Source: an uncultured Candidatus Peribacteria bacterium (lineage in GTDB: Bacteria; Patescibacteriota; Gracilibacteria; Peribacterales; Peribacteraceae). Taken from it: DNA of 64,000 nucleotides. The notes under the pieces were generated by a model. It made no database searches and was not told the DNA's origin. It was given only the letters and a program-made list of their open reading frames with translations. Below, piece by piece: positions 178-63,600 of the stretch. Position numbers and translations under genes: made by a program. The number at the start of each line of letters is the position of its first letter. Position 1 is the stretch's first letter. The stretch is taken from NCBI GenBank assembly GCA_964649695.1, contig CAZYQO010000004.1, forward strand, positions 89,394 through 153,393, written 5' to 3'.

Positions 178-195
178 GTAGGATAAGTATAGGCC

Positions 196-1050
196 ATGCC
201 TGCCCCAAAAGTCGCCATCCTTCTGCCCACGTATGAACCCGATCCTCAGCTGCTGCGGAAGGCCATCGATGGCGTGCTCGCGCAGACCGTGGACGATTGG
301 ACACTCCTGATCCACGATGACGGCTCAAAGGAGGACGTACACTCCATCGTAGAATCCTACCTCCGTGACCCCCGCGTCACATTTGTACGATCGGAGCGGC
401 GCCGGGGAATCGGCGGCAACTGGAATGCGGCGTTTGCCGCCTTGCCCGCGCTGCCGGTCGCTGTCGCCTATCTGTTCCAGGATGATGCCTGGCAACCGCA
501 CTACCTCTCGCTTGCCTGCATCGCAATGGAACGGCACCCGTCCGCCGGCCTCATCGCGCTCGCCCATCACTATGAGATGGAGCCGCTGCATCCCCTTGCC
601 CATCAATACCAGGCGATCGAGCGCGAGCGCTACCACGTCTTTGCGCAGGAATATGCCGAAGGAAAAGGCTTTTTGCTGCGTTGGCTGAAACAAGGTCTGC
701 ACCCCAACCTGATCGGGGAACCCAGTTTTGTGGTCATCCGGGCATCCATCCTCGCCGCCTGCCCGTGGGATACGCACATGGTGCAATGTCTTGATGTGCA
801 GGGTTGGGTACGCATGCTGCAGCAGACCGACATTGCGTTCGTCGCGGACAATGCAGGCACGTTTTTGGTGCATGGCGGCGGCGCCAGTGCGGCGCATCAG
901 CGCGCGGGACGCGGCATGTTCGATCGCCTGAGGATTCTCGTGCGACTGACGCGTTCCGAGGATCCGGCCATCCGCAGGTCGGCATGGAGCTGCATGTTGC
1001 GCGAGCTCCCCAAAATGACCGCAAAATTCTTCACACGTTTGCGAGCCTGA
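196..1050 (+). CDS. family 2 glycosyltransferase (GT-A fold)
   Basis: [26 protein letters not shown]...LLIHDDGS and a later QDD motif are typical of GT2. Start lies 18 bp from the divergent trmD start. Confidence 0.8.
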
Positions 1051-1299
1051 TCAGGCGAGGACAAGCGGCTGCACCTCGGTCTCCACAAAGGAACGCGCAC
1101 GATCCATCAGTCCCAACAGGCGATGATTCACCGTGCCGTTCTCCTTCTGCATATCGAGCAGGGGCGACAGGCGCTCCGTCAACGAGCGGAGGCGCTCCAC
1201 CAGCACGGGATGTTGTCCGTCGGAGACAAGTTGCAGATGCTCATCGAGCATATCCACATCGCCTTCGAACACGCCTAAATGGGAGGAGTTGTAACTCAT
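1051..1299 (-). CDS. hypothetical small protein (82 aa from ATG 1299)
   Basis: ORF-track 1051..1338, trimmed to the first ATG (MSYNSSHLGVFEG...). TACACT lies 11 nt upstream. No recognisable family. Confidence 0.3.
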   Translation of the reverse strand: MSYNSSHLGVFEGDVDMLDEHLQLVSDGQHPVLVERLRSLTERLSPLLDMQKENGTVNHRLLGLMDRARSFVETEVQPLVLA

Positions 1300-1334
1300 A
1301 CGATTGCGGCAGTGTACGAATTTCCACCCGAGGG

Positions 1335-2225
1335 TCAAATGAACTTTTTCATCAGTCCAGAAACGTCCGTTATGGCCACTTCCTGCACGGCATTGGTCTT
1401 TTTGCCTTTTCGCGGTTCAAGGCGGTCGTAGAAACTGGGAATGTCCTCATTCTGGTATAGCACCCCGCAGGCGATGTGCTCCGACACATCGGTTGCCGTC
1501 TGCCGTGCGAGTGCAAAATCCTTCGGGTCATAGCCGATGCCATCCACATCCTTGCACCGCTCCATCAGATAGTCGTGGGTGGCGAAGTGGTTATAGGTGG
1601 GACAGGCCTGGAGCATGTCGACGAAGGCGAAGCCGTTGTGCTGCAGTGCCGCCTTGAGCACACGCACCATCTGCGGGATGTTCCCCGAGAACGCGCGGCC
1701 GACGAAGGTGGGTTCGAGGCTGAAGACAAAATCCATCGAGTTGAGGGTGTGCTCGGGGATCCCGTTGGGCGACGAGTTCATCTTTTGCTCCTGCCACGTC
1801 AGGCTCGATGCCTGGCCGGTCGTCAGCCCGTAGTTGGCGTTGTTGTGAAGCACAAACACGATCGGATAGTTGCTGCGAATGCTGTGCACCAAATGGCCGA
1901 TGCCCTCCGAAAAACTGGCGCCGTCGCCGCCGAAGGCCATCACGGGCATCGACGGATTGGCCAACTTTGCGCCTGCGGCAAACGGCAGCACGCGGCCGTG
2001 CAGGCCATGGAAACGATAACCCAACAGCTTGTCACTGGTGTTGCCATGGCACCCCACGTCGTAGCAGAGCATCACACCGTGTGGCGGAATGCCGCTTTCC
2101 ACGAGCGCGCGCTTCACCGCCGTCCAGATCCCGTAATCCCCGCAACCGTCGCACCACGAGCAGCGGGTCGCGCAGTGGTAATCCTGCATCACGGGAGCCG
2201 ATCCTTTATCGAGAGGAATGCTCAT
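1335..2225 (-). CDS. 2-oxoacid:ferredoxin oxidoreductase, beta (TPP-binding) subunit
   Basis: CxWCxGCGDYG Cys motif and the GDG...NNxxYGLTTGQ TPP-binding motif. ATG 2225 overlaps the upstream stop (ATGA). Confidence 0.85.
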   Translation of the reverse strand: MSIPLDKGSAPVMQDYHCATRCSWCDGCGDYGIWTAVKRALVESGIPPHGVMLCYDVGCHGNTSDKLLGYRFHGLHGRVLPFAAGAKLANPSMPVMAFGGDGASFSEGIGHLVHSIRSNYPIVFVLHNNANYGLTTGQASSLTWQEQKMNSSPNGIPEHTLNSMDFVFSLEPTFVGRAFSGNIPQMVRVLKAALQHNGFAFVDMLQACPTYNHFATHDYLMERCKDVDGIGYDPKDFALARQTATDVSEHIACGVLYQNEDIPSFYDRLEPRKGKKTNAVQEVAITDVSGLMKKFI

Positions 2226-3967: not shown

Positions 3968-4428
3968 GCGAGGAGAGGAAGGATCTCGTCGCCCCAGGCC
4001 TGCACCAGAGCCTCCTGGCCGTAGGGTTCGTTGACGACTTTGAGCATGTGGCCGAGCTGTTCGCCTCCATGATTCATCACAAACTGACGGAGATGATGGC
4101 CACTGTTGCACAGATAGCGATAACGTTCGTCGCCAAGGGCGATGATCAGCACCTTTTTGCCACCCAGCTGCACGGCGCCACACTGATCATGAAGAAAGCG
4201 ATGCATGTACGGGTTCATTTGGCCTTCAATGCCGCCGGTATTCCAGCTGCCACTGGCAAACAGCAACACATCCCCGCGCTGCAGATCCTCGGGCTTGGCC
4301 GCCTCCGCGCGCTGCACCTCCACGTTCAGGTGCGGGGCTTTTGCGGCGAGGTGATCAACGAGCGTCTGAACCACAAACTCGGTGTGACCGCTCGTGGAGG
4401 CGTAGATGATGTGCAGGGACTGAGCCAC
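3964..4428 (-). CDS. flavodoxin
   Basis: IIYASTSGHTE FMN phosphate-binding loop, about 154 aa. GTG start 4428 is preceded by TAGAAT with 6-nt spacing. Confidence 0.75.
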   Translation of the reverse strand: MAQSLHIIYASTSGHTEFVVQTLVDHLAAKAPHLNVEVQRAEAAKPEDLQRGDVLLFASGSWNTGGIEGQMNPYMHRFLHDQCGAVQLGGKKVLIIALGDERYRYLCNSGHHLRQFVMNHGGEQLGHMLKVVNEPYGQEALVQAWGDEILPLLA

Positions 4429-4434
4429 GCGCCC

Positions 4435-4440
4435 ATTCTA
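4435..4440 (-). promoter_or_regulatory. -10 box TAGAAT, 6 nt upstream of the flavodoxin GTG (leaderless geometry)
   Basis: Plus strand reads attcta. No convincing -35 box found. Confidence 0.4.
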
Positions 4441-4489
4441 GCGATGTTTTCGCTGAACGCAGCATCTGGTTAAGACTGTCTTATTCTGC

Positions 4490-4495
4490 TATAAT
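4490..4495 (+). promoter_or_regulatory. -10 box TATAAT, 6 nt upstream of the MBOAT ATG (leaderless geometry)
   Basis: Sequence is gctTATAATaaggagATG. The AAGGAG abuts the ATG with 0-nt spacing, so it cannot function as an SD. Confidence 0.45.
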
Positions 4496-4501
4496 AAGGA
4501 G

Positions 4502-5893
4502 ATGGCTTTCACGAGCTTTACCTACCTGTATTTTCTCGCAATTGTCGTTGCGCTGTACTGGGCTGTGCGCAACAGGGTTGCCCAGAACGTCCTTTTGCTT
4601 GTAGCAAGTTACGTGTTCTACGGTTGGCTGACGCCATGGTATTGCCTCCTGCTGGCCAGCAGCACGATCGTCACCTATATCTGCCTGCATTGGCTGTGGA
4701 ATAGAAAGGAGGAAGAAAAAGAGCTCATCGCGGTTGTGGTGTGTGTGATTTTGAACATTGGAATGTTGGCCATCTGTAAATATTGGAATTTTTGGATCAC
4801 AGATATCCTAGCGACAACCAAATCTGTTGGCTGGAAATTATCAAAGGAAAGCCTGCAAATTGTTCTGCCGATCGGCATGTCATTTTATACATTGCAGGCT
4901 GTTGGCATCACTGTTGATGCTTATCGTAACGAAGTAAAAAGGCAATCTTTTTTGAATATTGCGCTGTTCCTAGCCTTCTTCCCCAAGTTAATTGCGGGCC
5001 CCTTCGAAAAAGCAAATGCATTCCTCGCTCAAGCCAACGCATCACGAACATTCGATGTAGGAAGTTTTTTGCAATCTTTTTCGTTGCTACTTGCAGGATT
5101 CTTGAAAAAATTAGTTATTGCAGAAAATATTAAAATTTATGTTGATCAAATCTTTTTTCTCAAAGATCCATCCATACCCTTGCTCTTGGTTGGCGGCGTG
5201 GGTTTTATGATTCAAATTTACGCTGATTTTTCTGGATATACAGACATAGCAAGAGGAAGTGCGCGCCTGTTGGGAATCAATCTAATGGAGAATTTTAATT
5301 CTCCATATCTAGCAGTCTCGCCATCTGATTTTTGGGGGCGCTGGCACATATCGCTCTCTCGCTGGTTTCGTGAATATATTTACATCCCCCTCGGGGGATC
5401 ACGTAGCCATGCAATCACTGAGATATGCTGGGCACTTATGATTACCATGTGTTTAAGCGGCCTCTGGCACGGCCCGACTTCAAATTATTTTGCTTGGGGT
5501 CTTTATCATGGAATGCTTATCTCCGCATATCTGACAATCGGCATCGGAGGTCACTGGAAACCAGTAACCGGCTTAGGCACCGCAATAGCAACAATATTAA
5601 TGTTAATTTGGACATTAATAGGCTGGATCATATTCCGCTGTAGCGATCTCGCTTGGCTTATTAAAATTATACTCAAATTTGATTGGCATCTCACGCAAGG
5701 TGAATTTTTAGTCACTTGGGTTTTTCTGTCTATGTATCTAGTGTACATACTGCCATGGCTGGGCTTAATAATCGCAGAACGCTTACCTGACAAATACATA
5801 TGGCTCAAGGCTCCGCTTAGGGCAACTATTGTGATGTGCATCGTTATTTTAGGAGAGGCAAACGTTGTTGATTTCATTTATGTTAATTTCTAA
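4502..5893 (+). CDS. MBOAT-family membrane-bound O-acyltransferase (AlgI/DltB/PatA-like)
   Basis: Polytopic, 463 aa, with a conserved MBOAT core (FWGRWHISLSRWFREYIYIPLGGSR ... SGLWHG). AT-rich codon usage unlike the flanking genes. Confidence 0.8.
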   Translation: MAFTSFTYLYFLAIVVALYWAVRNRVAQNVLLLVASYVFYGWLTPWYCLLLASSTIVTYICLHWLWNRKEEEKELIAVVVCVILNIGMLAICKYWNFWITDILATTKSVGWKLSKESLQIVLPIGMSFYTLQAVGITVDAYRNEVKRQSFLNIALFLAFFPKLIAGPFEKANAFLAQANASRTFDVGSFLQSFSLLLAGFLKKLVIAENIKIYVDQIFFLKDPSIPLLLVGGVGFMIQIYADFSGYTDIARGSARLLGINLMENFNSPYLAVSPSDFWGRWHISLSRWFREYIYIPLGGSRSHAITEICWALMITMCLSGLWHGPTSNYFAWGLYHGMLISAYLTIGIGGHWKPVTGLGTAIATILMLIWTLIGWIIFRCSDLAWLIKIILKFDWHLTQGEFLVTWVFLSMYLVYILPWLGLIIAERLPDKYIWLKAPLRATIVMCIVILGEANVVDFIYVNF

Positions 5894-11368: not shown

Positions 11369-11378
11369 GGGAGGAGGA

Positions 11379-11573
11379 TTACAGGTTGGGGACGAGTTTC
11401 ATGAAGCGCTTTTCATCGGTCTTGTGCACCAGGATCGTGCGATTCTGGCGCTTGGCACGCTTGTTCTTCTGCTGGAGCAGGTGATTACGCGAGTTGCGCT
11501 TGAGAGCCAGCTTACCGCTGCCCGTGCGACGGACTCGTTTCTTCGCGCCGCTGTGACTCTTGAGTTTACCCAT
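11379..11573 (-). CDS. rpmI: 50S ribosomal protein L35
   Basis: MGKLKSHSGAKKRVRRTGSGKL...HLL is a canonical bL35 sequence. Confidence 0.95.
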   Translation of the reverse strand: MGKLKSHSGAKKRVRRTGSGKLALKRNSRNHLLQQKNKRAKRQNRTILVHKTDEKRFMKLVPNL

Positions 11574-13840: not shown

Positions 13841-13876
13841 TACAAAGTCATCTTTTTACAGAAGAAGGAGAACGCG

Positions 13877-15815: not shown

Positions 15816-15844
15816 TTGCACAAAATCTCAATTTGCGCTATAAT
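15816..15844 (+). promoter_or_regulatory. sigma70 promoter TTGCAC-17-TATAAT, 6 nt upstream of GTG 15851
   Basis: -35 at 15816-15821, -10 at 15839-15844. Confidence 0.6.
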
Positions 15845-15850
15845 AATAAC

Positions 15851-17749
15851 GTGAAACACCAAAACCGACTCCTCGACACTCTCCTGCCCATTGCCGTGCT
15901 TTTTGCATTCGCAGCGGGCTCCTGGTTGGTGCTGCATGCCGCACAACACGGATCTTTGCGGGCGTCGGTGGGCATCTGTGGCGATGGAACGGTGAACGAC
16001 GGCGAGGCCTGCGATGACGCCGATGTGGATGAGGCAGACGGCTGTACCACCAGCTGCACGATTTCCGCCGGCTGGACCTGCACGGGCAACCCCAGTGTGT
16101 GCAACCAGTGTGGCGACGGAACAAAGGTGTCCGCGGAGGCTTGTGATGACGGCAATGTGGCTGCGGCTGACGGTTGCAGCGCGACCTGCACCATTGAAAG
16201 CGGCTACAGCTGTACCGGCACAACGCCGAGTGTGTGTGATGCCTGCGGCAACGGCACCAAGGTGTCGGCCGAGGGATGCGACGACGGCAACAACACGGCG
16301 ACCGACGGCTGCAGCGCGACCTGCACGGTGGAGTCCGGTTGGACATGCACAGGCACCACGCCGAGCGTGTGCAACCACTGCGGCGACGGGACAAAAGTGG
16401 ATGCCGAAGCATGCGACGACGGCGACAACGATGCGGGAGACGGATGCAGCGCAACGTGTACGGTGGAAACTGGCTACGTGTGCAGCGGCTCGCCGAGCAG
16501 TTGCCACGCAACCGTGTGCGGAGACGGAGTGAAGGAAGGCAGCGAAGGCTGCGATGACGGCAATCACGCCAACGGCAGCCCTCTCGACGGCTGCAGTGCA
16601 AGCTGCACCATCCAATCCGGCGGCAGCTGCACCGGCACCACACCGAGCGTCTGCAGCATCTGCGGCAACGGAACGGTCGGCGGCACCGAGGCCTGCGATG
16701 ACGGGGATACCACGGCCGGCGATGGCTGCAGCGCGACCTGCACGGTGGAAGAGGGATACGTCTGCAGCGGCACGGCACCCAGTGCGTGCACCGTGTGCGG
16801 TGACGGCAGAAAAGTCGGCGCCGAGGAATGCGACGACAGCAACGCCACAAGCGGAGACGGCTGCAGCAGCATCTGCACGATCGAATCGAGCTGGAGCTGT
16901 ATCGGCAGCGGCAGCGGAGGACTGCTGAGTTCGTGCAACCGTTGCGGTGACGGCGTGAAGGTGGCTGCGGAAAACTGCGATGACGGCAACAGCGCCTACG
17001 GCGACGGCTGCAGTGCGACCTGCACGGTGGAAGAGGGATTTACCTGCACAGGCACCACACCCACGGTATGCGCAGGCATTTGCGGCGACGGCCTGGTGCG
17101 TGGCCAGGAAGGCTGTGACGACGGCAACACCACCGACGACGACAACGGCTGCTCCGCCACCTGCGTATCCGAAAAGGATTGGCTGTGTGTCGGCGAACCG
17201 AGCACCTGCACCCTGCAGCACTATCCCGGCGGCGGTGCCAATGCGGCGACGCGTGCAGCTTTCCCGTTGCCCGAACAAACCATGAAGAGCGCCGCACCCA
17301 AGAATCCCAACCAAGCTCTGGCTGCGCTCGCACAAACCAAAGTGCCGGTTCACATGATCACGACCGTTCTCGATTCCATCGCCCCTCCTGAAGGCTGCGT
17401 CACCGGCAAAAAGCATGCGGCTGCCCCCGTCCCCTTCCTCATCGAAGGCAACACGCGCGGCGTGATCTTCGCCGCCATGGCGGCCAAGCTGTGTCTCTCC
17501 ACGGCCGGCGGTGCACCCGTCCCCTACACCGACTTCGACGCGCACATGCCCTTTGGCTCCGAGATCCGCGCACTCTCCAACACCGGCGTGAAGATGGACG
17601 CCATGGATGCCCGCGGTTTTGCCACAGGCAAAATCTCTCCCGATCGGCCGATGAATGCCTTGGAACTCGTGCTCCTTATCGGCGGTCTGCAGAAGCGAGG
17701 ATACATTGAGTGGAAAGACGCCCAGCAGGCTATTGCACCCATGCAATAA
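15851..17749 (+). CDS. cell-surface protein with 9 cysteine-rich repeats (Myxococcus cysteine-rich repeat/DUF4215 type) and an SLH-like C-terminus
   Basis: N-terminal TM/signal (LLDTLLPIAVLFAFAAGSWLVL), then 9 copies of CG(D/N)G..x..E.CDDGN...DGCS.TC..E.G..C.G.PS.C. The C-terminal YTDFD...GFATGKISPDRPMNALE resembles an SLH motif. Confidence 0.8.
   Translation: MKHQNRLLDTLLPIAVLFAFAAGSWLVLHAAQHGSLRASVGICGDGTVNDGEACDDADVDEADGCTTSCTISAGWTCTGNPSVCNQCGDGTKVSAEACDDGNVAAADGCSATCTIESGYSCTGTTPSVCDACGNGTKVSAEGCDDGNNTATDGCSATCTVESGWTCTGTTPSVCNHCGDGTKVDAEACDDGDNDAGDGCSATCTVETGYVCSGSPSSCHATVCGDGVKEGSEGCDDGNHANGSPLDGCSASCTIQSGGSCTGTTPSVCSICGNGTVGGTEACDDGDTTAGDGCSATCTVEEGYVCSGTAPSACTVCGDGRKVGAEECDDSNATSGDGCSSICTIESSWSCIGSGSGGLLSSCNRCGDGVKVAAENCDDGNSAYGDGCSATCTVEEGFTCTGTTPTVCAGICGDGLVRGQEGCDDGNTTDDDNGCSATCVSEKDWLCVGEPSTCTLQHYPGGGANAATRAAFPLPEQTMKSAAPKNPNQALAALAQTKVPVHMITTVLDSIAPPEGCVTGKKHAAAPVPFLIEGNTRGVIFAAMAAKLCLSTAGGAPVPYTDFDAHMPFGSEIRALSNTGVKMDAMDARGFATGKISPDRPMNALELVLLIGGLQKRGYIEWKDAQQAIAPMQ
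15977..17209 (+). repeat. nine tandem coding repeats of 132-147 nt
   Basis: First Cys codons at 15977, 16109, 16244, 16379, 16517, 16661, 16796, 16943 and 17081. Recurrent gacggctgcagcgcgacctgcac strings. Confidence 0.85.
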
Positions 17750-19778: not shown

Positions 19779-19902
19779 CTGGAATTTTCTGCCTTTAAAA
19801 CTGCCGGATGGAGGATTGTCGGGTGAAATGCCCATAGGGAAGCGGATGGTAGTGGGACGGAGTGCCCTTCGCAAGATCCGGCAGGTTCTGTAGCATGCCC
19901 CC

Positions 19903-20850
19903 ATGCGCATCCTTCTGACCGGGGCAGCCGGATTCATCGGGTTTCACACGGCAACCAGGCTCTTGGAGAAGGGCGACGAAGTGGTCGGATTCGACAATAT
20001 GAATGCATACTACGATCCCACTCTCAAGGAGGCGCGCCTGAAGATTTTGGAAGGCAAAAAGGGATTTTCTTTCATCAGGGGAGACATTCTCGACCGAGCC
20101 GCGCTTGCCAAGGCGATGCAGGGCGTCGATCGGGTCATCCACCTCGCCGCACTCGCCGGCGTGCGCTATGCCTTCGATCACCCCGATGAGTACATCGACA
20201 TCAACATCCGCGGCTTTTTCCATGTCATCGATGAGGTGCGCAAGCAGAAGATCCCCGGGCTGATCTACGCCAGCTCCAGCTCCGTCTACGGAGGCAACGG
20301 CAAGTATCCGGCCGAAGAAACCGACCGCACCGACAACCAGGTGTCGCTCTATGGCATGAACAAAAAGGACAACGAACTGATGGCGCACGTATATCACTCG
20401 CTCTACGGCATCCATGTGACGGGTCTGCGTTTCTTCACGGTCTACGGCCCTTATGGGCGCCCGGACATGGCGCTGTTCCTGTTTGCCGACGCCATTGTGA
20501 AGGGCAAGCCGATGCAGGTATTTGGCGAAGGAAAGATGCAGCGTGACTTCACCTATGTGGACGACATCGTCAGCGGCATCGTCGCTTCTGTGGACAAAAA
20601 CTACCCCGAGGAAATCTTCAACCTCGGCTGCGGCCGCAAGGAGGAGCTGATGGACTACATCGGCCACCTGGAAAAGGCGCTGAGCAAGGAAGGAAAGAAG
20701 GATTTTCTGCCGATGCAGAAGGGCGATGTGGTCGCCAGCCTGGCGGGAATCAACCATGCCAAGGAGAAGCTGGGCTATCAGCCCACGACGCAGATCAAAG
20801 ACGGCATCCCGAAATTCGTGGCCTGGTACAAGGAATACTACGGTATCTAG
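19903..20850 (+). CDS. NAD-dependent epimerase, UDP-glucuronate 4-epimerase-like
   Basis: MRILLTGAAGFIGFH...NMNAYYDP.LKEARL...SSSSVYG...Y.MNK. Sits next to ugd. Confidence 0.7.
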   Translation: MRILLTGAAGFIGFHTATRLLEKGDEVVGFDNMNAYYDPTLKEARLKILEGKKGFSFIRGDILDRAALAKAMQGVDRVIHLAALAGVRYAFDHPDEYIDINIRGFFHVIDEVRKQKIPGLIYASSSSVYGGNGKYPAEETDRTDNQVSLYGMNKKDNELMAHVYHSLYGIHVTGLRFFTVYGPYGRPDMALFLFADAIVKGKPMQVFGEGKMQRDFTYVDDIVSGIVASVDKNYPEEIFNLGCGRKEELMDYIGHLEKALSKEGKKDFLPMQKGDVVASLAGINHAKEKLGYQPTTQIKDGIPKFVAWYKEYYGI

Positions 20851-22899: not shown

Positions 22900-23840
22900 T
22901 TTTTGGGTGCGGACTGCCAGGCGTCATAGGTTTTCTGCAGACCCTCGGCAATCTGCGTCCAACGCATCTCCTTGAGCGTGGCATGCACGGGCAGCAGCGG
23001 AATTACGCGCAGACCCTCCGGCTTGTCGGTGTCAAAGACGATGGGCAGCCCGGGGTTGGCCAGGTCACGGATGAGGGTGGCAAGCTCGCGGACGGAGACG
23101 ACATCGCCCGACGTGATGTATTGGATACCGGTTGCCTTGGCCTCATGAAGACGCAACAGGGCTTCCACAAAATCTTCGACATACAAAAATGCGCGCTCCT
23201 GCTCCCCGCTCCCCCACACGGACAACGCGTCCTTCGCATCACGTGCGCGCACGAACAGCGACGGGATCACGTTGCCGTCGTCGGCAAAGGTGTCGCGCGG
23301 ACCGTACACGCCCACGGGGCGGATCATGTAGAGCGGAAACTGCATCTGACGCGCGGCAAGGAACCACAGGGTCTCGCACAATGCCTTCCCCAGGGTGTAG
23401 CCGTTGGTGTGCTCACTTTGGGCAAGCGCCAGGACATCGAGATTGGGCGGGATGTTGGCGGTACTCACGAAGAACACCTCGGGGTGATTACCCTTGCCCT
23501 GCGCCTTGAGACCGTCGATCAGCGCGGTGGTCATGCGGACATTCTCGGTAGCCACATCGCTGCACTTCTTCTCGTGAAACTCCACGTTCCTGCGGCAGGA
23601 TGCGAGGTGGAACACCACATCGACACCCTTGAGCAGCTGCTCGCAGTACTCAGAATCGCGCAGATCACCCTTCACCCATTCCACTTTGCCGCGCTTGTCG
23701 GAAAGCGCACGGTAATTGTCGGCACGCGCAGGAACGCGCACGTCCGCACCTTCTTCCAACAGCCGTTCCACGAGGAAGCTGCCGATAAACCCCGTCCCTC
23801 CGGTGACCAGTACGCGCCGTTTCTCCCAGGGGGATGCCAT
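22896..23840 (-). CDS. NAD-dependent epimerase/dehydratase (extended SDR)
   Basis: From MASPWEKRRVLVTGGTGFIGSFLVERL...YTLGKALCE. TACGCT lies 8 nt upstream of the ATG. Confidence 0.75.
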   Translation of the reverse strand: MASPWEKRRVLVTGGTGFIGSFLVERLLEEGADVRVPARADNYRALSDKRGKVEWVKGDLRDSEYCEQLLKGVDVVFHLASCRRNVEFHEKKCSDVATENVRMTTALIDGLKAQGKGNHPEVFFVSTANIPPNLDVLALAQSEHTNGYTLGKALCETLWFLAARQMQFPLYMIRPVGVYGPRDTFADDGNVIPSLFVRARDAKDALSVWGSGEQERAFLYVEDFVEALLRLHEAKATGIQYITSGDVVSVRELATLIRDLANPGLPIVFDTDKPEGLRVIPLLPVHATLKEMRWTQIAEGLQKTYDAWQSAPKK

Positions 23841-23929
23841 CGCAGGCCAGCGTAGCAGAGGAATGCCCCGGGCAACCACTCGGGTTCCTTATTCCCCTCT
23901 TAGGCCAAAAGACGGTAGACTGCCGCGGC

Positions 23930-25204: not shown

Positions 25205-25258
25205 CGCCGAAGGGAAACACTCGCTCGCCGCAACCGAGACCGCTAAAATCCCCGCACT

Positions 25259-25993
25259 ATGCGTTTTTCCTTCAAGATCTACAAGACCCGACACAATTTC
25301 GTGCAGCAGGCCATTGCGGGCAAAAAGCTGCATCTGTTGGATGTGGGCAACCTGGGTGACGGCGAAAGCAATTGTCGCCTCCTGTATAAAGATGTGACCG
25401 ATGCCGGAGGTACCTATGCAGGGCTGGACAGCAACGAGGCGCTCACCCAGAAAATGAACCTGCCGGGACAGGTGGTGGGCGACCTTCATCATACGCCGTT
25501 TGAGAGCGACACCTTCGATGCCATCTATGCAGGCGAGATCATCGAGCACACCTGGACACCCGCCGTCATGATCGGTGAATGCCGACGGATCCTGAAGCCG
25601 GGAGGACTGCTGATCATCGACACCCCCAATGCGTTCAACATCGTCCATGTCGGCAGGTACCTGCGCTACGGCGAGGATTCGATGGGTGACATCCGCGTGC
25701 AGACCTATCACGAGGCGAAATGCGCGTTTACCGACCTGAAAGAACGGGGCGATGTGCTCCTGCAACCGCAGCACAAGATCTTCTACACGCCGGCCATGCT
25801 CAAACAGCTGCTGGAAACGCAGGGGTTTGTCATCGAGTCGATGGGCGTGACCCACAAGCCGGGATCCCTGCTGCACCGCTTCCTGCTGTGGCTCTTCCCG
25901 CAATGCGGGCGCCACCTGTGCTTTGTCGCCAGGAAGGCGACCGTCGACGATGCGTTTGCCGATGTGAAGGATCGCACCGACACCTTCAACTGA
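25259..25993 (+). CDS. class I SAM-dependent methyltransferase
   Basis: LLDVGNLGDG (motif I-like)...EIIEH...ILKPGGLLIIDTPN. Confidence 0.65.
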   Translation: MRFSFKIYKTRHNFVQQAIAGKKLHLLDVGNLGDGESNCRLLYKDVTDAGGTYAGLDSNEALTQKMNLPGQVVGDLHHTPFESDTFDAIYAGEIIEHTWTPAVMIGECRRILKPGGLLIIDTPNAFNIVHVGRYLRYGEDSMGDIRVQTYHEAKCAFTDLKERGDVLLQPQHKIFYTPAMLKQLLETQGFVIESMGVTHKPGSLLHRFLLWLFPQCGRHLCFVARKATVDDAFADVKDRTDTFN

Positions 25994-31418: not shown

Positions 31419-31497
31419 GGGAGGAGTGTAAAGAAAGCCCCCCAAAAGAACGAGGGGGACTGGGCGGGAAACCGCCCCCCTGCTAGGCTGCAGCCCA

Positions 31498-32505
31498 ATG
31501 CAACCCGTCGGTACCGCCGTCATCGGACTGGGCTATTGGGGCCCGAATATGCTGCGCAACTTCGCGCAGTGCCCGGATATGCGCCTCATCGCGGCCTGCG
31601 ACATGCGCGAGGAGCGCCTGGCCATGTTCCGTCCCATGTATTCCGCAACGGAGTTCACCACGAAAGTGGAGGACATTTTCCGGAACCCCGCCATCGAGGC
31701 GGTCTCCATTGCCACTCCGCTCTCGACACACTTCGACCTCGTGAAAGCCGCGCTTCTTGCGGGCAAGCATGTGCTCGTCGAAAAGCCGCTGACCCAGAGC
31801 TCCGCCCAGGCAGCCGAACTGATAGAGCTCGCACGGGAGAAGAAGCTGCAGCTGCTCGTCGACCATACCTTCATCTACGAAGACGCCGTCAGGCAGATCC
31901 GCGACTATGTGACCCAGGGTACGATCGGCAAACCCCTGTACTTCGATTCCACGCGCATCAACCTCGGTCTCATTCAGCGCGACACCAACGTGCTGTGGGA
32001 TTTGGCCATCCATGACCTCTCGATCCTCAACCACTGCAAACCCCTGTCCGATGTGAAGCATGTGCTGGCCTACGGCCAGAAGCACCACACCGACCAGGTG
32101 GAAATGGCGCATCTGCACCTGGAATACGCCGACGGCTTCTGTGCACATATCCATGTCAGCTGGCTGTCACCGGTGAAGATCCGCCAGACCCTGATCGGCG
32201 GCACGGAGAAGATGATCACCTACAACGACAACGACCCGTCCGAGAAGGTGCGCCTCTACGACAAGGGTGTGACGGTGACGAAGGAAGAGCAGAGCTTCGC
32301 CATGCCGGTATACCGCAGCGGCGATGTGCTGATCCCCCGCCTCAAGACCGTCGAACCGCTCAAGGTGCTCGCCAGCCACTTCGCCAAATGCGTGCGCGGC
32401 GAAGAGCAGCCGCTCACCCCTGCCACCAACTCCAAGCTGATCATCGAGATTCTGGAGCTTGCCGACCGGTCGATGCACGACGGCCATTCCGTTTCCCGCC
32501 CATGA
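31498..32505 (+). CDS. Gfo/Idh/MocA-family NAD-dependent sugar oxidoreductase (WbpB-like)
   Basis: VIGLGYWGPN Rossmann motif and the VLVEKPL motif. Confidence 0.75.
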   Translation: MQPVGTAVIGLGYWGPNMLRNFAQCPDMRLIAACDMREERLAMFRPMYSATEFTTKVEDIFRNPAIEAVSIATPLSTHFDLVKAALLAGKHVLVEKPLTQSSAQAAELIELAREKKLQLLVDHTFIYEDAVRQIRDYVTQGTIGKPLYFDSTRINLGLIQRDTNVLWDLAIHDLSILNHCKPLSDVKHVLAYGQKHHTDQVEMAHLHLEYADGFCAHIHVSWLSPVKIRQTLIGGTEKMITYNDNDPSEKVRLYDKGVTVTKEEQSFAMPVYRSGDVLIPRLKTVEPLKVLASHFAKCVRGEEQPLTPATNSKLIIEILELADRSMHDGHSVSRP

Positions 32506-46891: not shown

Positions 46892-46938
46892 GCGGGCAGT
46901 GTACCAACAAGACCATAAGAAGGGTAAAATGTCCGCTC

Positions 46939-48156
46939 ATGGCCAAATCCCCCCTCCAGGCACGGGCAGACTTCCCCCAGCTCTCACGCCAGGTGGGCAG
47001 CCACGCCCTGCTGTATCTCGATTCTGCGGCCACCAGCCAAATGCCCTCCCCTGTCTTGGAAGCCATGGACGCTTTCGAGCGCAGCCACCGGGCAAACGTC
47101 CATCGCGGCATGCACATGCTTGCTGAAGAGGCGACCGATGCCTACGAAGGCGCCCGCGAAACGGTGCGCCGGTTTGTGGGTGCGGCGCATGCCGATGAAA
47201 TCGTCTTCACCAAAAGCTGTACCGAAGCCATCAACATCGTCGCGCGCGGCATGGACAGCGGCATGCAGAAGGGCGACGTGATCGCACTTTCGATGCTCGA
47301 GCACCACAGCAACATCGTGCCGTGGATGCAGCTGAAGGAGCGAACGGGCGTCACCCTGCAATGGATGGATATCAACGACGACGGTTCGCTCAACGAGGAA
47401 TCGCTGCAACGCGCGCTGGACACGCCGCACCTACGCCTAGTGGCAATCACCGGCATGAGCAACGTGCTCGGCACTCGCCCCGATCTGCATCGCATCATCA
47501 CTGCAGCGCATGCGCGCGGCGCACAGGTGTTGGTCGACGCCGCACAGCTCATCGCCCACGACGCGGTGGACGTGCAGTCGCTCGATGTCGATTATCTGGC
47601 CTTTTCCGGCCATAAACTGTTTGGCCCCACGGGCATCGGCGTGCTGTACGCCAAGCGCGCCTTGCTCAAGAACCTGCCTCCGCTGCTGGGAGGTGGAAAC
47701 ATGATCGAAGAGGTGACACTGGAAGGCTTCACCACCAACGATGCGCCGTTGAAGTTCGAGGCAGGGACACCGCCCATCACCCAAGCGGTAGGTCTCGCCG
47801 CCGCCATGGATTGGCTCGAGCAGTTCCCGCTCAGCGAGCGCCGCGCGCACGAGCGCATGCTCTATGAAAAGGCCATCGCCACGTTGAGCACTGTCGAGGG
47901 ACTGCGCATTCTCGGATCGCACAACAATGAGGGGGTGATCAGTTTTGTGGTAGAGGGTGTGCACCCCCATGACCTCACAAGCATCCTTGGGCAAGAAGGT
48001 GTATGCCTCCGCGCCGGGCACCACTGCACCCAGCCATTGCACCGCCGGCTCGGCATCACTGCTTCCACGCGTCTGTCGCTGTCGCTCTACAACACCTGCG
48101 ACGAGCTCGAACGCCTCCCCGAGGCCATCACCCAAAGCATCCGCACATTGTCCTAA
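46939..48156 (+). CDS. sufS: cysteine desulfurase, SufS type
   Basis: RANVHRGMHMLAEEAT..., PLP-Lys motif SGHKLFGPTGIG, and catalytic Cys in RAGHHCTQP. Confidence 0.85.
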   Translation: MAKSPLQARADFPQLSRQVGSHALLYLDSAATSQMPSPVLEAMDAFERSHRANVHRGMHMLAEEATDAYEGARETVRRFVGAAHADEIVFTKSCTEAINIVARGMDSGMQKGDVIALSMLEHHSNIVPWMQLKERTGVTLQWMDINDDGSLNEESLQRALDTPHLRLVAITGMSNVLGTRPDLHRIITAAHARGAQVLVDAAQLIAHDAVDVQSLDVDYLAFSGHKLFGPTGIGVLYAKRALLKNLPPLLGGGNMIEEVTLEGFTTNDAPLKFEAGTPPITQAVGLAAAMDWLEQFPLSERRAHERMLYEKAIATLSTVEGLRILGSHNNEGVISFVVEGVHPHDLTSILGQEGVCLRAGHHCTQPLHRRLGITASTRLSLSLYNTCDELERLPEAITQSIRTLS

Positions 48157-51450: not shown

Positions 51451-51479
51451 TTGACCAAGGCCTTTTTCTTCCTTAGGCT
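51451..51479 (+). promoter_or_regulatory. promoter TTGACC-17-TAGGCT, 10 nt upstream of the rpmB ATG
   Basis: -35 at 51451-51456, -10 at 51474-51479. Confidence 0.55.
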
Positions 51480-51489
51480 TGCCGCCCAC

Positions 51490-51699
51490 ATGCCTCGAAC
51501 ATGCGTCAAAACCGGCAAGCGAACGGCCTTCGGCAACACCCGAAGCCATAGCAACAGGCATACCCGCCGCACGTGGAAGGCCAACATCCAGGTGAAGAAG
51601 GTGCTCGACCCCGCAACGGGCGAGTTCAAGCGCATGAAGGTCTCCGCCGCCTACCTGCGCACCTTGAGCAAGCGCATGAGTGCAGGAAAGAAGGCCTAA
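51490..51699 (+). CDS. rpmB: 50S ribosomal protein L28
   Basis: MPRTCVKTGKRTAFGNTRSHSNRHTRRTWKANIQ... is a canonical bL28 sequence. The ORF-track upstream extension is rejected. Confidence 0.9.
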   Translation: MPRTCVKTGKRTAFGNTRSHSNRHTRRTWKANIQVKKVLDPATGEFKRMKVSAAYLRTLSKRMSAGKKA

Positions 51700-52235: not shown

Positions 52236-52250
52236 GTTTTCCATGACAAC

Positions 52251-52282
52251 AAAAAGGACGCCGCTTTGGCGACGTCCTTTTT
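52251..52282. terminator. bidirectional rho-independent terminator between tRNA-Ser and the convergent small gene
   Basis: AAAAA GGACGCCGC tttg GCGACGTCC TTTTT. Confidence 0.7.
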
Positions 52283-52297
52283 CAACACAAACTCGTA

Positions 52298-52561
52298 TTA
52301 CTTCTTCGACGGCATGTCGCAGCTGCAACCGCAGCACGCCTTCATGCTCTTGGTGAGCAGTGTGAGCGAAAGGGCAAACGCGATGAGCGAGAGCGAACCG
52401 TTGCTCGTGCCGAACGTGGCGCCTGCCGCAAGGACATGTGCCTTGTACACACCGATCGCCGAAGCGAGAGCGGAGATAAAGAGGAGCACCGTGCTGACCA
52501 CGTTGGTCAGTGTGCAGCCGGAACAACCGGAATTCTTGGCCTTCTTGCCGAAGAGCGCCAT
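52298..52561 (-). CDS. small two-TM membrane protein with terminal Cys clusters
   Basis: N-terminal CSGC, two hydrophobic helices, C-terminal CCGCSC. Has its own promoter and terminator. Confidence 0.5.
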   Translation of the reverse strand: MALFGKKAKNSGCSGCTLTNVVSTVLLFISALASAIGVYKAHVLAAGATFGTSNGSLSLIAFALSLTLLTKSMKACCGCSCDMPSKK

Positions 52562-52588
52562 AGGGAGGGGAGGAAAGGAACGCAGACG

Positions 52589-52617
52589 ATCGTAGCGGAA
52601 CCCGAAAATCCCTGCAA
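52589..52617 (-). promoter_or_regulatory. promoter TTGCAG-17-TACGAT for the small Cys-cluster gene
   Basis: Plus-strand coordinates: -10 at 52589-52594, -35 at 52612-52617. Confidence 0.5.
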
Positions 52618-52662
52618 AGAGACGCGCTGGAAGAGCCCCGCCGAAAGCTCTAAGCTTCCCCC

Positions 52663-60018: not shown

Positions 60019-60047
60019 TTGTCAGGCAGGCTTGGCTTCCCTACCAT
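60019..60047 (+). promoter_or_regulatory. promoter TTGTCA-17-TACCAT for ndk
   Basis: -35 at 60019-60024, -10 at 60042-60047. Confidence 0.5.
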
Positions 60048-60070
60048 GCCGCCACTTTCCTCATATCCCC

Positions 60071-60490
60071 ATGCAGCGCACCCTCATCCTTCTCAAGCCC
60101 GACGCCGTCACCAAGAAAATCTGCGGCAAAGTGATCAACCGTTTTGAAGAGGCGGGCTTCACCATCCGTGGCTGCAAGATGATGCATCTGAGCCCCGAAA
60201 TCCTGAAAGACCACTACGCCCACATTGCCGACAAGCCCTTCTACCCCGACGTGGAAACCTTCATGCGTTCCGCTCCGGTCATTGGACTGGTGCTGGAAGC
60301 TGACGACATCGTCGCCAAAATGCGCGACATGCTCGGCGTGACCGACAGCCGCAAGGCAGCCCCGGGTACGATCCGCGCCGAACTGGGCGTCGACATGATG
60401 GTGAACGTGGCACACGCCTCCGACTCGCCCGAAGCCGCAGAAGCCGAGGTGGCTCGCTTCTTCAAGCCCGAGGAACTGTTCGCGTACTAA
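60071..60490 (+). CDS. ndk: nucleoside-diphosphate kinase
   Basis: MQRTLILLKPDAV...GTIR...NVAHASDS (catalytic His). Confidence 0.9.
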   Translation: MQRTLILLKPDAVTKKICGKVINRFEEAGFTIRGCKMMHLSPEILKDHYAHIADKPFYPDVETFMRSAPVIGLVLEADDIVAKMRDMLGVTDSRKAAPGTIRAELGVDMMVNVAHASDSPEAAEAEVARFFKPEELFAY

Positions 60491-60514
60491 TCCTCAACTG
60501 CAACAACCGAAACA

Positions 60515-60535
60515 GGGCGTGCACACGCCCTTTTT
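60515..60535 (+). terminator. rho-independent terminator after ndk
   Basis: GGGCGT gcac ACGCCC followed by TTTTT. Confidence 0.7.
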
Positions 60536-60619
60536 CATAGGGCATTCCGGCACCAATATGGTGACCATGACCTTTTTTAGGCTGTGAGCAAGTAAATAGT
60601 ACGAGACAATCGAAAAGCA

Positions 60620-60648
60620 TTGTCAAATATCCGCGCGCAGCGTTGAAT
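60620..60648 (+). promoter_or_regulatory. promoter TTGTCA-17-TTGAAT, 10 nt upstream of ATG 60659
   Basis: -35 at 60620-60625, -10 at 60643-60648. Confidence 0.45.
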
Positions 60649-60658
60649 CTCCCGGATC

Positions 60659-63600
60659 ATGAGTAAGCCGATCGATTTCGCCCAACGGGAAGCCGAAACA
60701 TTGACCGCATTGCTCGGCCAAGTGGGCAAAAAGATGCTGCATGGGCATTTCCCGACACCCGAAGAGGCCATTGTCGCCGTACGAACGTGGCAGGACGCCG
60801 GCACGACTCCGGAACATTGGACGGAAGACGCCCTGCGCACCGTTGCACAGGACCCGCATGTCATCCGACAGATCGCCGCGATCCGTCATGTAGAGGCGGC
60901 AAAATCGGTGGAGTCGACCGCGCACATCACACGCACAAAAGCCGCGAGCGTGCTTGCCAACCTTGCGCAATCACCGCGCCGTTTTGTGGATGCCCTGCTC
61001 ACACAACTCAAGCTCGAACAGGCACTCGACCCCTACTTCAGCACCAAGACCCACGTGCGCCAGCGCCGCCCTGTCACCCCGGAGCAACGCGAAACGCTTG
61101 CCTGTGTCACTCGCGTACTGAGGGAAGCGGGCTTGGATGGAGCCATGGAAGGAGAGCTGCGCAAGTTGTACCCATATTTTCAGTGGCGAGCACTCGATCA
61201 TCACACGATACCAGAAAAGCGTTTGCAGGAGATCCGTCAGATCATCACCGGCGAAGGAGCGAGCAATGGCTCTACGCACATTGCTGCCCCCGAGAGCATC
61301 GGTGCTCTGCCTCACAACATTCTCTCTGCCCTACAGGAAACGGGGTGCTTTCAAAACATCCAGCAGCACGAATTCAAATACCGCGTGGCAGGCAACACGG
61401 TGCGCATCCCGCTCGCTGTAGCACAGATGTTTGCACGGGCACTGGCCAAGCTCTCCCAAGACGAACGTGCATTGCTCCGCGCACAGCTGCCCTCCTTCCC
61501 TTGGGAATTTGCCGAAAGCTTCTGTCGCCCCACCAACACACCTCCACCTCCACCCGACCCCGTCATCACTCCTGTGACGACCGCAGCGTCGGTTGCCAAG
61601 CCGGTGATCGTTGTTGCTCCGCCCACGCCCGCCCCCCTTCCCCCCGAGGAAGCACCCCCTGCCATCCCCGACTGCATGGCACAACTGCCGGCTGAGGCGC
61701 GTGCTGCACTCGAAGCAACCGGCGCATGGGAAAACCTGCTGCGCTACCACCCCAATTACGCAAAGGGAAACCCTATCGTGAAGCTGCCCAAGCCCGCGGT
61801 GAAGCGTTACGCGCGGACGGTGAGCGCATTACACGGGCAAGACGATGTCATCGCGGCAATCCGCGCCACCTTCCCCACGCTGCCATGGAACTACATCATG
61901 GAATTTGTCCGCGAGCCTGAGGCGAATGCGGATAACAGTGAGTCTGCAGCCGACATCCCCGCACCCGCCACCCATGAAGCGGCAGCTACACAACCGCAAC
62001 CCGAACCCCCGGCATCGACCATCACAACAGACACCACATCGTATCCGAAACCGACATCCATCGAGGTGCCGCTGGTGACGCTGTTGCAGGAAATCGACGG
62101 CGCACTGAACGAAGCCGGGGTCGACGAGCAGACCGGCCAACGCATCATCTCCCTCGTCAGCCGCTACGGAGCCACATTGGTGCAGCTCACCCATGACCAT
62201 GGTCATCTGCACCTGAAAGAATTCCTGCAACCGCTCGAGTTTGACGCTCCTTTGGAGAGGCAAGAGGAGCAGATCGAACCTGCACCGGCACCCACGGATA
62301 CTGGCACCCCTGAGCCTCCAACAGCCCCAGAAGCAGCGCCCATTGTAGAACCTGTCACCACCGCCCCCACTCTCCATATCCCTGAGATTCACCCCTGCCT
62401 CGCGGGTGTCCCCATCGATCTGGCCGCCCGTTGTCAGGAGATTTTACACTCCATCCATATCCCGACGCAGGTGGCCGGCCATCGCCGCACATTCGATGAA
62501 ACGGCCAGGGCGGGCATTCTTCAGATTTGCGATCTCCTCAAGCCTGTGCGCGGCGCATCGGCTGCATTCCTCGCACACTTTGGCATTGCCTCGGCCAACC
62601 TCACCTATTGGCGCTCAGCCGTGACCGACACGAGTCCTGCCGCCGATGCACAGCCCGCCACAGATGAGCCGCCTGCTTCTCCGCTGCCACCCGATACTGC
62701 GGCTGCCGTTGAGGAAGACGAAGGCGCCCCTTCGCAGTATGCATTTTTACAAAAAGTAAGCGGCAACATACGAGCCGAATGCGAGCAACTGCTGAGAGCA
62801 CTGCATGTTCCCGCTTTCGAGGAAGGCAAGCGCCGCCAGATTGATGACACTGCAAAATGGATGATTGTGCGCGTGCACACCCTGCTCGCGACGACCCGTG
62901 GCGCTGGTGCGGAATTCCTGAAGAGCATTGATCTGTCGCCTTCCGCCATTTACGTCTGGCGCACGCAATTTGACCCCAACGTGCAACCCCCGGCTACGGA
63001 ACACCCCGTCTCCATCCCTGCGCACAAGGCACCGTCCCTCGTCGATGAGACGGTCATGAGTGCTACACCCCCCAAAGCCCCTGCATACGTCGCACCGCAG
63101 AACCCCACCGCGAACGATCTGTTGGAATTCGAGCGCGTCATCAACGACGGTCACACCCGCGAAAGCCGCTTGAACATCCTCGATCGCGTGTTGCAGCTCG
63201 CAGGCAACAAGGAGGCGCAGCAGGCTCTGTATCAGGAATGCAATGTCACGGTGCCGCAGGTGCGTCTGTGGTTGCAGATGTACAACCCGCACCGTCATGC
63301 ACTCCCACAGGAGCGCGCGTGGGAATCCGCACCCCCCGCAGAAAAGCCGGCACGCTCGCTGCTGCAATTCTCCGCGCGAAACGTAGGCGAGTTTGTAGAG
63401 CATGTGCTCCCGATCCTGCTCAACCCCTTCGAGCCCAACAGCCAATGGGCAGACACCGATACCGATCCCATGAGCGAAACTGCATCGTTGGCATCGACAT
63501 GCCGCAAGAGACTGCTTGCCACCATGACCAACCTGGAGCCCCAGACCGTCGGCCGCCTGCGTGCCATCGCGCAAAAACCAAACAGTCGCGTGACCCAGGA

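Follow-up and report, generated by a model that had tools for sequence, protein, structure and literature searches.

In haloarchaea such as Haloferax volcanii and Halobacterium, first genes are leaderless and internal genes are initiated independently of Shine-Dalgarno (SD) sequences. An organization of this type corresponds to group D in the GeneMarkS-2 study (PMC6028130), whose group C comprises Actinobacteria (Mycobacterium tuberculosis, Streptomyces) and Deinococcus-Thermus (Deinococcus deserti), with a geometry that dRNA-seq has confirmed in M. tuberculosis and D. deserti. The locus described here shares with group C a Pribnow-type TANNNT box placed 6-8 nt (centre ~-10) from the start of operon first genes, a weak -35 element, ATG or GTG start codons and the involvement of a large share of transcription units (PMC6028130). 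It differs in that the internal and leadered genes of group C use SD sites (PMC6028130), whereas here no gene class shows an SD signal and internal genes are mostly stop/start-overlapped; moreover, CPR/Patescibacteria are not mentioned in the description of group C, and the -10 element here favours C at position 5. With haloarchaea, the locus would share leaderless first cistrons in the majority of cases and an initiation that depends on SD little or not at all. Archaea, however, place their promoter (TATA/BRE) ~26 nt before the start and have a different polymerase and different initiation factors, and the signals are not homologous to those found here.

A third comparison is with SD-scarce bacteria whose 16S rRNA lacks CCUCC (class iv), among them Flavobacteriia, reduced endosymbionts and Candidatus Peribacter riflensis (PMC10783764). 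The likeness lies in the absence of SD and in the loss of the anti-SD core published for a Peribacteria genome, for which the promoter/start geometry was not reported (PMC10783764). Flavobacteriia, in contrast, have leadered mRNAs with an A-rich upstream region before all genes (group B), whereas the element considered here is a putative promoter element marking uncoupled starts only.

Hexamers upstream of start codons in a Peribacteria contig

The window, that is, the whole 64,000-nt stretch analysed, is part of contig CAZYQO010000004.1 (GCA_964649695.1) of an uncultured Candidatus Peribacteria bacterium, from the CPR class Peribacteria (Peregrinibacteria). The nearest relatives of its housekeeping proteins are Candidatus Peribacteria (CPR/Patescibacteria), and all 25 of the 25 pheT relatives (45-59% identity) come from Peribacteria, Peregrinibacteria or Patescibacteria MAGs. 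The comparison set consisted of 19 Peribacteria genome fragments (loci) with 235 genes; one of these, L003, shows local synteny with the window (L28 80% and M16 77% identical). A first-pass annotation had listed 25 hexamer/spacing/start combinations in the window as leaderless-gene geometry. All 25 are present as listed at their coordinates; one of them, the box preceding 60659, is TTGAAT rather than TAnnnT, which makes it the weakest of the set. The sites, with two additions (at 196 and 31418), are as follows (coordinates, strand, gene product, hexamer, spacing and start codon):

175..191 (-), trmD (Pfam tRNA_m1G_MT): TATACT (186-191), 8 nt, ATG177
179..198 (+), GT2: TAGGAT (179-184), 11 nt, ATG196; borderline, predicted leader ~4 nt
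4426..4440 (-), flavodoxin: TAGAAT, 6 nt, GTG4428; Flavodoxin_1 profile position 1 at residue 7
4490..4504 (+), MBOAT in a low-GC island: TATAAT, 6 nt, ATG4502
15816..15853 (+), DUF4215 protein: TTGCAC-17-TATAAT, 6 nt, GTG15851
18271..18287 (+), UDP-glucose dehydrogenase: TATACT, 8 nt, ATG18285; Pfam profile position 1 at residue 1; orthologues TAnACT-7-ATG
19891..19905 (+), epimerase: TAGCAT, 6 nt, ATG19903
21562..21577 (+), epimerase: TACAAT, 7 nt, ATG21575; Epimerase profile position 1 at residue 3
23838..23854 (-), epimerase: TACGCT, 8 nt, ATG23840
23916..23932 (+), second UDP-sugar dehydrogenase: TAGACT, 8 nt, ATG23930; Pfam profile position 3 at residue 7
25244..25261 (+), methyltransferase: TAAAAT, 9 nt, ATG25259
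31416..31430 (-), GT4 glycosyltransferase: TACACT, 6 nt, ATG31418; absent from the first-pass list
31484..31500 (+), GFO/IDH/MocA oxidoreductase: TAGGCT, 8 nt, ATG31498
37591..37608 (-), GT4, first of a 4-gene coupled operon: TAGAAT, 9 nt, ATG37593
38563..38577 (-), rmlB-like dehydratase: TATACT, 6 nt, ATG38565
38616..38632 (+), rmlA-like nucleotidyltransferase: TAAGCT, 8 nt, ATG38630
42395..42432 (-), GT4: GTGTCA-17-TATGAT, 6 nt, GTG42397
43025..43044 (-), unknown protein: TGgTATGAT, 8 nt, ATG43027
46889..46906 (-), PMT_2 membrane glycosyltransferase: TGgTACACT, 6 nt, ATG46891; geometry unchanged in the L003, L016 and L018 orthologues
46925..46941 (+), class-V aminotransferase: TAAAAT, 8 nt, ATG46939
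49408..49422 (+), methyltransferase, 20 nt past tRNA-Thr: TAGTCT, 6 nt, ATG49420
50974..50989 (-), M50 peptidase: TACACT, 7 nt, ATG50976; orthologues TATACT/TACACT/TACTCT-6-ATG/GTG
51451..51492 (+), rpmB (L28), full promoter: TTGACC-17-TAGGCT, 10 nt, ATG51490
52651..52665 (+), pheT: TAAGCT, 6 nt, ATG52663
55894..55931 (+), conserved 98-aa protein: CTGACA-17-TATCCT, 6 nt, GTG55929; GTG and geometry kept in L003, L004, L011 and L020
59381..59396 (-), TPR protein: TAGAGT, 7 nt, ATG59383; L003 orthologue identical (TAGAGT-7-ATG)
60620..60661 (+), 1032-aa unknown protein: TTGTCA-17-TTGAAT, 10 nt, ATG60659

The divergent gaps reported earlier are correct (18 bp at 178-195, between trmD and GT2, and 26 bp at 21549-21574). 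The AAGGAG found at 4502 fills the spacer between box and start codon and abuts the ATG (spacing 0), and is thus unusable as an SD. Alternative start positions were rejected in three cases, with ATG23930 preferred to 23834, ATG31418 to 31523 and ATG50976 to GTG51228.

Position of TANNNT relative to gene starts

Under a motif-blind rule (our own gene finder, start set to the 5'-most ATG/GTG), TANNNT peaks sharply 6-9 nt upstream of starts, in 15 of the 49 window genes versus ~0.4 expected; internal ATG/GTG codons, taken as a control, carry the motif at ~0.1 per spacing, or ~0.4 over four spacings. The identical peak recurs in the 19 Peribacteria loci (76/235 genes, P=5e-33), and pooling of the window with its relatives gives 90/284 genes versus 13 at control offsets. 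In an unbiased scan, TANNNT ranked first among 1280 three-position hexamer patterns (P~2e-49). With curated starts, 30 of the 57 CDS carry TANNNT 5-11 nt upstream, whereas its frequency in the neighbouring 12-30 nt zone predicts 5.2 (P=6e-17). The positional enrichment over controls anticipated by the first-pass annotation is therefore confirmed, and its proposed comparison with related genomes bears it out, with orthologous starts keeping the geometry.

It is extremely improbable that AT-rich intergenic DNA, combined with free choice of start codons, generated the list by chance or selection. Several open reading frames do have alternative upstream starts, and the number of TANNNT-N6-10-ATG occurrences across the whole window is not in excess of shuffles (49 vs 42±7), which means that the enrichment is confined to gene starts. 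However, the peak survives the motif-blind rule, with flat flanking spacings in the same intergenic DNA, and when any in-frame candidate start is allowed, mimicking cherry-picking, the motif is found at 6-9 nt in 23/49 genes versus 7/49 at the control spacing of 20-23 nt (P=8e-4). Furthermore, E. coli passed through the same pipeline yields an SD peak (27/45) and no TANNNT peak (3/45), and orthologues agree; chance or selection is refuted at P<1e-16. The motif-blind scan revealed no peaks at spacings 0, 3, 12 and 15, excluding an artefact of in-frame stop codons.

The geometry is kept at orthologous N-termini though the sequence drifts. TANNNT lies at 6-9 nt in 20 of the 22 pheT orthologues, each from a different genome, and conservation extends to the 55929 protein, M50, UGDH, PMT2, TPR and CobAT. 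The starts themselves are supported independently by orthologue N-termini and by Pfam profiles, positions 1-3 of which align to residues 1-10.

Promoter architecture and first genes of operons

The informative positions of the hexamer are T1, A2 and T6, with a consensus preferring C at position 5 (TAnaCT). Matches to a -35-like TTGACA (at least 4/6) peak at spacers of 16, 17 and 18 bp (11, 19 and 10 of 143 sites, respectively), amounting to 40/143 versus ~13 expected, with ~4.5 at other spacers; the first -35 position has T=0.50. At rpmB, the promoter TTGACN-17-TANNNT-(8-12)-ATG is fully conserved in the window and 9 relatives. A strict two-hexamer promoter scan of 42-61 kb gave no excess (4 vs 4.5), indicating that the -35 element is weak, as it also is in mycobacteria. 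Position -1 before the start codon is C in a fraction of 0.53; followed by the start codon's A or G, this C agrees with the pyrimidine(-1)/purine(+1) rule of transcription start sites. This architecture points to a sigma70-type promoter element.

The curated map of the window divides its 57 CDS into 26 uncoupled starts with TANNNT at 5-11 nt, 20 starts coupled to an upstream stop codon and 11 with neither feature, so that the first two classes account for 46/57 CDS. The claim that nearly every first gene fits the pattern was overstated: most do, but the proportion is ~70% (26 of 37-38 uncoupled starts), with ~30% devoid of the motif. Among coupled starts, TANNNT occurs in 4/20 with ~2 expected by chance, and in the pooled set of window and relatives, -4 overlaps number 12 among genes without TANNNT versus 2 among genes with it. 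The motif belongs to the first genes of operons and is rare at tightly coupled internal starts; most downstream cistrons have a start codon that overlaps the stop codon before it (ATGA).

This distribution also bears on the possibility that leadered mRNAs carry the hexamer as a non-SD translation signal, recognized by the ribosome or S1 and not by RNA polymerase, on the model of GeneMarkS-2 group B genomes with their Bacteroidota-type A/T-rich upstream motif. A substitute signal is conceivable in a lineage without SD (PMC10783764), and the motif also occurs 8-60 nt past a same-strand gene, where many bacteria would not normally have a promoter. We nevertheless consider a translation signal very unlikely, because group B motifs are found before every gene (PMC6028130) whereas this one is rare at coupled internal cistrons, its informative positions are those of a -10 box, a -35-like element lies at 17±1 bp and the full promoter is conserved at rpmB, and C(-1)/purine(+1) matches start-site selection.

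Very probably, the hexamers are instead sigma70-type -10 boxes giving leaderless first cistrons in most transcription units. Because transcription usually starts ~7 nt from a -10 box, the 5' end of the transcript is predicted to fall at or near the start codon. We infer where transcription begins and how ribosomes are recruited as follows. RNA polymerase would initiate at, or 0-4 nt before, the A or G of the start codon, such that in most transcription units the first cistron would be made as a leaderless mRNA; the ribosome and initiator tRNA would recognize the 5'-terminal AUG/GUG directly, with no SD interaction; and downstream cistrons would be reached mostly through stop/start overlap, presumably by termination-reinitiation.

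The boxes could also be true -10 elements while, for many of these genes, longer transcripts arising by read-through or from upstream promoters dominate and the leaderless form is minor or conditional. Many motif-bearing starts indeed lie just 8-60 nt past a same-strand gene (for example, 37593, 25259, 43027 and 49420), and few strong terminators are seen between such genes. We regard this as unlikely, since an internal AUG with neither SD nor stop/start overlap has no obvious route to initiation here, and the exact spacing is conserved across 19 genomes, which argues that the 5'-terminal position matters. The leaderless reading of the -10/start geometry is thus supported at the level of sequence.

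Absence of Shine-Dalgarno signals and short leaders

No SD signal was detected upstream of any gene class in the window or its relatives. In particular, genes without TANNNT (26 in the window and 106 in relatives) show no upstream peak of GGAG, GAGG or AGGAG, and the SD sites that characterize the remaining (internal or leadered) genes of group C are accordingly missing from this set. The window has a single canonical AAGGAG-7-ATG, which lies in front of a 32-aa ORF of doubtful status. No rRNA was found in the window or in the relatives' loci; the published 16S rRNA of a relative, together with the absent SD signal, suggests that the genome from which the window derives may likewise have lost its anti-SD. 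As read from the DNA, then, the organization is the known leaderless one of group C, in a lineage where it has been undescribed so far, and SD-less.

Peregrinibacteria are frequently devoid of bS21 (PMC9297842). Tentatively, and with slightly less than even confidence, we propose that Peribacteria may have abandoned SD-led initiation altogether, having also lost the 16S anti-SD and bS21, with virtually every cistron being either leaderless or translated through stop/start-overlap reinitiation. If so, Peribacteria would be the bacterial counterpart of the haloarchaeal situation, the reduced CPR ribosome would be tied to an ancestral-type mode of initiation, and SD-based gene callers would systematically misplace starts in Peribacteria MAGs.

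In a minority of genes (prfB, rpmI, infC, 9129 and 59472), the -10-like box lies 14-27 nt upstream, implying short SD-less leaders. Spacings of 9-11 nt (25259, 37593, 51490, 60659 and 196) would correspond to leaders of 2-5 nt if initiation is fixed 7 nt past the box.

TANNNT hexamers at gene starts

All 25 hexamer/spacing/start combinations that the first-pass annotation had read as TAnnnT -10 boxes of leaderless mRNAs, 6-10 nt before start codons, were found in the sequence (25/25) when the coordinates were re-derived; the box before 60659 is actually TTGAAT rather than TAnnnT, with TTGTCA 17 bp upstream of it. The claim that none of these starts has room for a Shine-Dalgarno (SD) sequence holds with a reservation at ATG4502, where the spacer is AAGGAG, but its spacing of 0 to the ATG leaves no normal SD. 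Across the whole window, TANNNT-N6-10-ATG occurred 49 times versus 42±7 in dinucleotide shuffles, which is no enrichment. The signal is visible solely when conditioned on starts, and the question must be posed at gene starts.

Genes were therefore called by codon usage, blind to upstream motifs, with the 5'-most ATG/GTG of each ORF taken as the start. A position-specific scan against internal codons and control spacings bore out the proposed geometry, with a TANNNT peak at 6-9 nt in 15 of 49 window genes (7, 0, 5 and 3 genes at 6, 7, 8 and 9 nt, respectively), compared with 0-2 genes at each other spacing and 0.1 per spacing at internal ATG/GTG codons. When every in-frame start was allowed to count, mimicking a reader free to choose starts, the peak comprised 23/49 genes versus 7/49 at control spacings of 20-23 nt (P = 8e-4). 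On the curated map, TANNNT lay 5-11 nt upstream in 30 of 57 CDS, against 5.2 expected from the adjoining 12-30 nt zone (P = 6e-17). TAA or TAG stops at ORF boundaries could imitate the hexamer, but the absence of peaks at 0, 3, 12 or 15 nt excludes in-frame stops as its source. The identical pipeline applied to 50 kb of E. coli K-12 recovered an SD peak at 4-7 nt (27/45) and no TANNNT peak (3/45).

Retention in relatives and probable promoter character

The same peak was present in related genomes, represented by 19 Peribacteria loci long enough for analysis (46-64% G+C), each genome being sampled over only some 20 kb in the pheT region: the counts at 6, 7, 8 and 9 nt were 26, 19, 18 and 13 (76/235 genes), with a contribution from every locus, versus an average of 3.8 genes at each spacing of 12-40 nt (P = 5e-33). 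When all 1280 hexamer patterns that fix three positions were screened without bias, TANNNT came out far ahead of the rest (90/284 genes versus 13 at control offsets, P ~ 2e-49), so that the informative positions are T1, A2 and T6, matching those of sigma70 -10 elements. Starts of orthologous genes retain the geometry while hexamer and spacer sequences drift. In pheT, for example, 20 of 22 genomes have TANNNT at a spacing of 6-9 nt from the conserved ATG (MK[IL]S) (P = 3e-22), the remaining two having CATAAT and CACACT. The 98-aa protein at 55929 has TAnnCT-6/7-GTG in four relatives and ATG in the others, which confirms its GTG start. Orthologues of the M50 peptidase confirm the start at 50976, not 51228, and the box geometry is likewise retained for UDP-glucose dehydrogenase, PMT_2 membrane glycosyltransferase, TPR, aminotransferase and CobAT orthologues.

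When sites were aligned on the hexamer, T reached 0.50 at the expected first -35 position with a 17-bp spacer. At least 4/6 matches to TTGACA occurred at 11, 19 and 10 of 143 sites for spacers of 16, 17 and 18 bp, compared with about 4.5 of 143 at other spacers; TTG alone was uninformative as a -35 test. The -35 element is weak overall: a strict two-hexamer promoter scan of 42-61 kb returned 4 sites versus 4.5 expected, two of the four being the annotated boxes at 55929 and 42397. At rpmB, the window (51451-51492) and nine relatives share a complete TTGACN-17-TANNNT-(8-12)-ATG promoter, and TGn precedes the box at 24/143 sites. RNA polymerase prefers a pyrimidine at -1 and a purine at +1 of the transcription start; C at -1 relative to the start codon (53% of sites) fits this rule with the start-codon A/G as predicted +1. 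Box spacings of 9-11 nt may correspond to predicted leaders of 2-5 nt rather than zero.

Several relatives (L007, L009, L010, L013, L017, L020 and L024) carry short tandem 7-8-nt repeats just upstream of gene starts, namely those of CobAT, L28, M16, M50, pheT and the 55929 orthologue, with units such as TAATACC/TAATACT, AATTGAGA/AATTGAAA, TATCAAT and CGTAAAT; nothing similar was found in the window's intergenic DNA.

Other start classes, start corrections and absence of SD

On the curated map, 20 of 57 CDS are coupled, beginning ≤5 nt from an upstream same-strand stop, 15 of them through ATGA overlaps; TANNNT is nearby at 4/20, with about two expected by chance. A further 11/57 are neither coupled nor box-bearing. 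In several of these, TANNNT lies 14-27 nt upstream (prfB, 19 nt; rpmI, 23; infC, 27; 9129, 26; 59472, 23; 21548, 14), which implies short leaders. With two further genes added to the curated map, the leaderless geometry accounts for 26 of 37-38 uncoupled starts (about 70%), so that the pattern holds for most first genes of transcription units but not for "nearly every" one, as had been proposed. The two genes emerge from 12254-13772 (-), where the coding frame changes near 13150, giving two genes overlapping by 11 nt instead of one 391-aa ORF. They are located upstream of infC, a position where thrS often sits.

13155-13754, minus strand: box 18 nt upstream, membrane-like N-terminus, no family match
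12254-13165, minus strand: overlaps the upstream stop codon, lipoprotein-like signal (LGC), no family match

Independent support for ten starts (18285, 19903, 21575, 23840, 23930, 31498, 38565, 38630, 4428 and 51490) comes from Pfam profiles whose position 1-3 aligns to residues 1-10. The GT4 glycosyltransferase gene truly begins at ATG31418(-), which has TACACT 6 nt upstream and had been missed by the first-pass annotation; this removes the apparent 5' overlap with 31498. Nine longest-ORF starts were over-extended, and each corrected start has either an ATGA overlap of the upstream stop or TANNNT 6-9 nt upstream.

Over-extended longest-ORF starts and likely starts
2252: likely start 2225
4183: likely start 3967
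23834: likely start 23930
26953: likely start 27160
30303: likely start 30267
31523: likely start 31418
32388: likely start 32502
41348: likely start 41297
51228: likely start 50976

Gene callers that rely on SD sites would be expected to place starts wrongly in genomes of this kind, and the two features, if confirmed, would provide a start-correction rule for Peribacteria MAGs. For the minus-strand gene at 60041-60493, nucleotide conservation with 11 relatives extends upstream of GTG60415, and the gene probably starts higher up in the ORF reaching 60493; no ATG, GTG or TTG occurs between 60415 and the upstream stop.

No SD-type motif peaked upstream of genes lacking TANNNT (26 in the window and 106 in relatives). 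At -15 to -1, such genes have G-poor, C/T-rich CCTCC/CTCCC/TCCC tracts (in the window, rplT 11369-11385 and prfB 14029-14047; in relatives, M16 genes). Considered as a possible inverted SD, CCTCC/CTCCC tracts are about 5-fold more frequent than in gene interiors, but this is only about double what base composition would roughly predict, and their positions are diffuse. Their role may just be to hold short leaders unstructured.

14048-15140, plus strand: prfB (RF2), shift site 14111-14117

This gene has a classical programmed +1 frameshift: ATG14048 opens MEELLHHLRELSSAIHVGKDSL, followed by CTT TGA A, beyond which the +1 frame encodes the PCRF/RF-1 domains. GTG13998, the start called mechanically for this ORF, is wrong. 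ATG14048 has TACACT 19 nt upstream and a CCTCCTCTCC-rich leader. Four nt before the shift-site CTT there is a weak AAAGGA, in a lineage otherwise without SD use; tblastn for the frameshift sites of relatives gave no usable match. The window's only canonical SD-like arrangement is an AT-rich patch at 13812-13975 (+), with TTGACT-17-TATAAA, then AAGGAG, 7 nt and ATG13877, which opens a putative very basic 32-aa ORF (MTMHPPPRKPRGKGKRRKTKQSLRPTKIGARR) without Pfam or NCBIfam match.

Known leaderless systems and window content

Leaderless transcription is textbook matter for Actinobacteria, Deinococcus-Thermus and archaea. The leaderless-type genomes of GeneMarkS-2 (group C) make up 90% of Actinobacteria and 97% of Deinococcus-Thermus, and the class was verified against dRNA-seq for M. 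tuberculosis and D. deserti (PMC6028130). The window works alike, except that SD use by the remaining genes, a group C feature, is lacking. If confirmed, the leaderless geometry would account for translation initiation in a lineage reported to be without the anti-SD sequence (PMC10783764), and it predicts unusually dense promoters, with almost all gaps of ≥8 nt holding one. Ribosomal protein bS21 is often missing in Peregrinibacteria (PMC9297842). Neither the window nor the fetched loci of relatives contain rRNA, hence no 16S 3' end there. No new mechanism is revealed, the one proposed here being ordinary. Our literature search found no paper on leaderless promoters in Peribacteria or any other CPR group, so that the lineage, and the pairing with a complete loss of SD, still await description.

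The exact PheT sequence matched a sole record, a short Logan contig, and its relatives among GTDB species representatives were all Candidatus Peribacteria/Peregrinibacteria/Patescibacteria MAGs (25/25, 45-59% identity). The related fragment L003 shares local synteny with the window, with L28, M16 and aminotransferase 67-80% identical. The window (60% G+C) encodes, by Pfam, trmD, pyruvate:ferredoxin oxidoreductase, flavodoxin, ADP-forming acetyl-CoA synthetase, infC-rpmI-rplT, prfB, rpmB, pheT, an M16 peptidase and several proteins of no named family; an NCBIfam search of ten family-less ORFs, including the 32-aa one, gave none above cut-off. Rfam families comprise three tRNAs and nothing else.

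18.3-46.9 kb: polysaccharide/glycosylation cluster of 29 kb (Pfam)
4502-5893: MBOAT acyltransferase, in the low-GC island
5893-7014: 373-aa protein of no assigned family, in the low-GC island

The low-GC island (~4450-7014, about 4-8 kb; 47.5% versus 60% G+C), whose genes are linked through 1-nt stop/start overlaps, was probably acquired horizontally; its first gene still has TATAAT, 6 nt, then ATG. Two stretches, 48200-49320 and 52236-52650, are without a convincing gene, and the ORF at 48328-49410, without family match, overlaps tRNA-Thr. A gap of 427 bp separates tRNA-Ser from the pheT promoter, and pheS is not adjacent to pheT in the window. A tandem repeat of 135 nt (16217-16467; 1.9 copies, 76% identical) lies within the gene for a DUF4215 cysteine-rich repeat protein (15851-17749).
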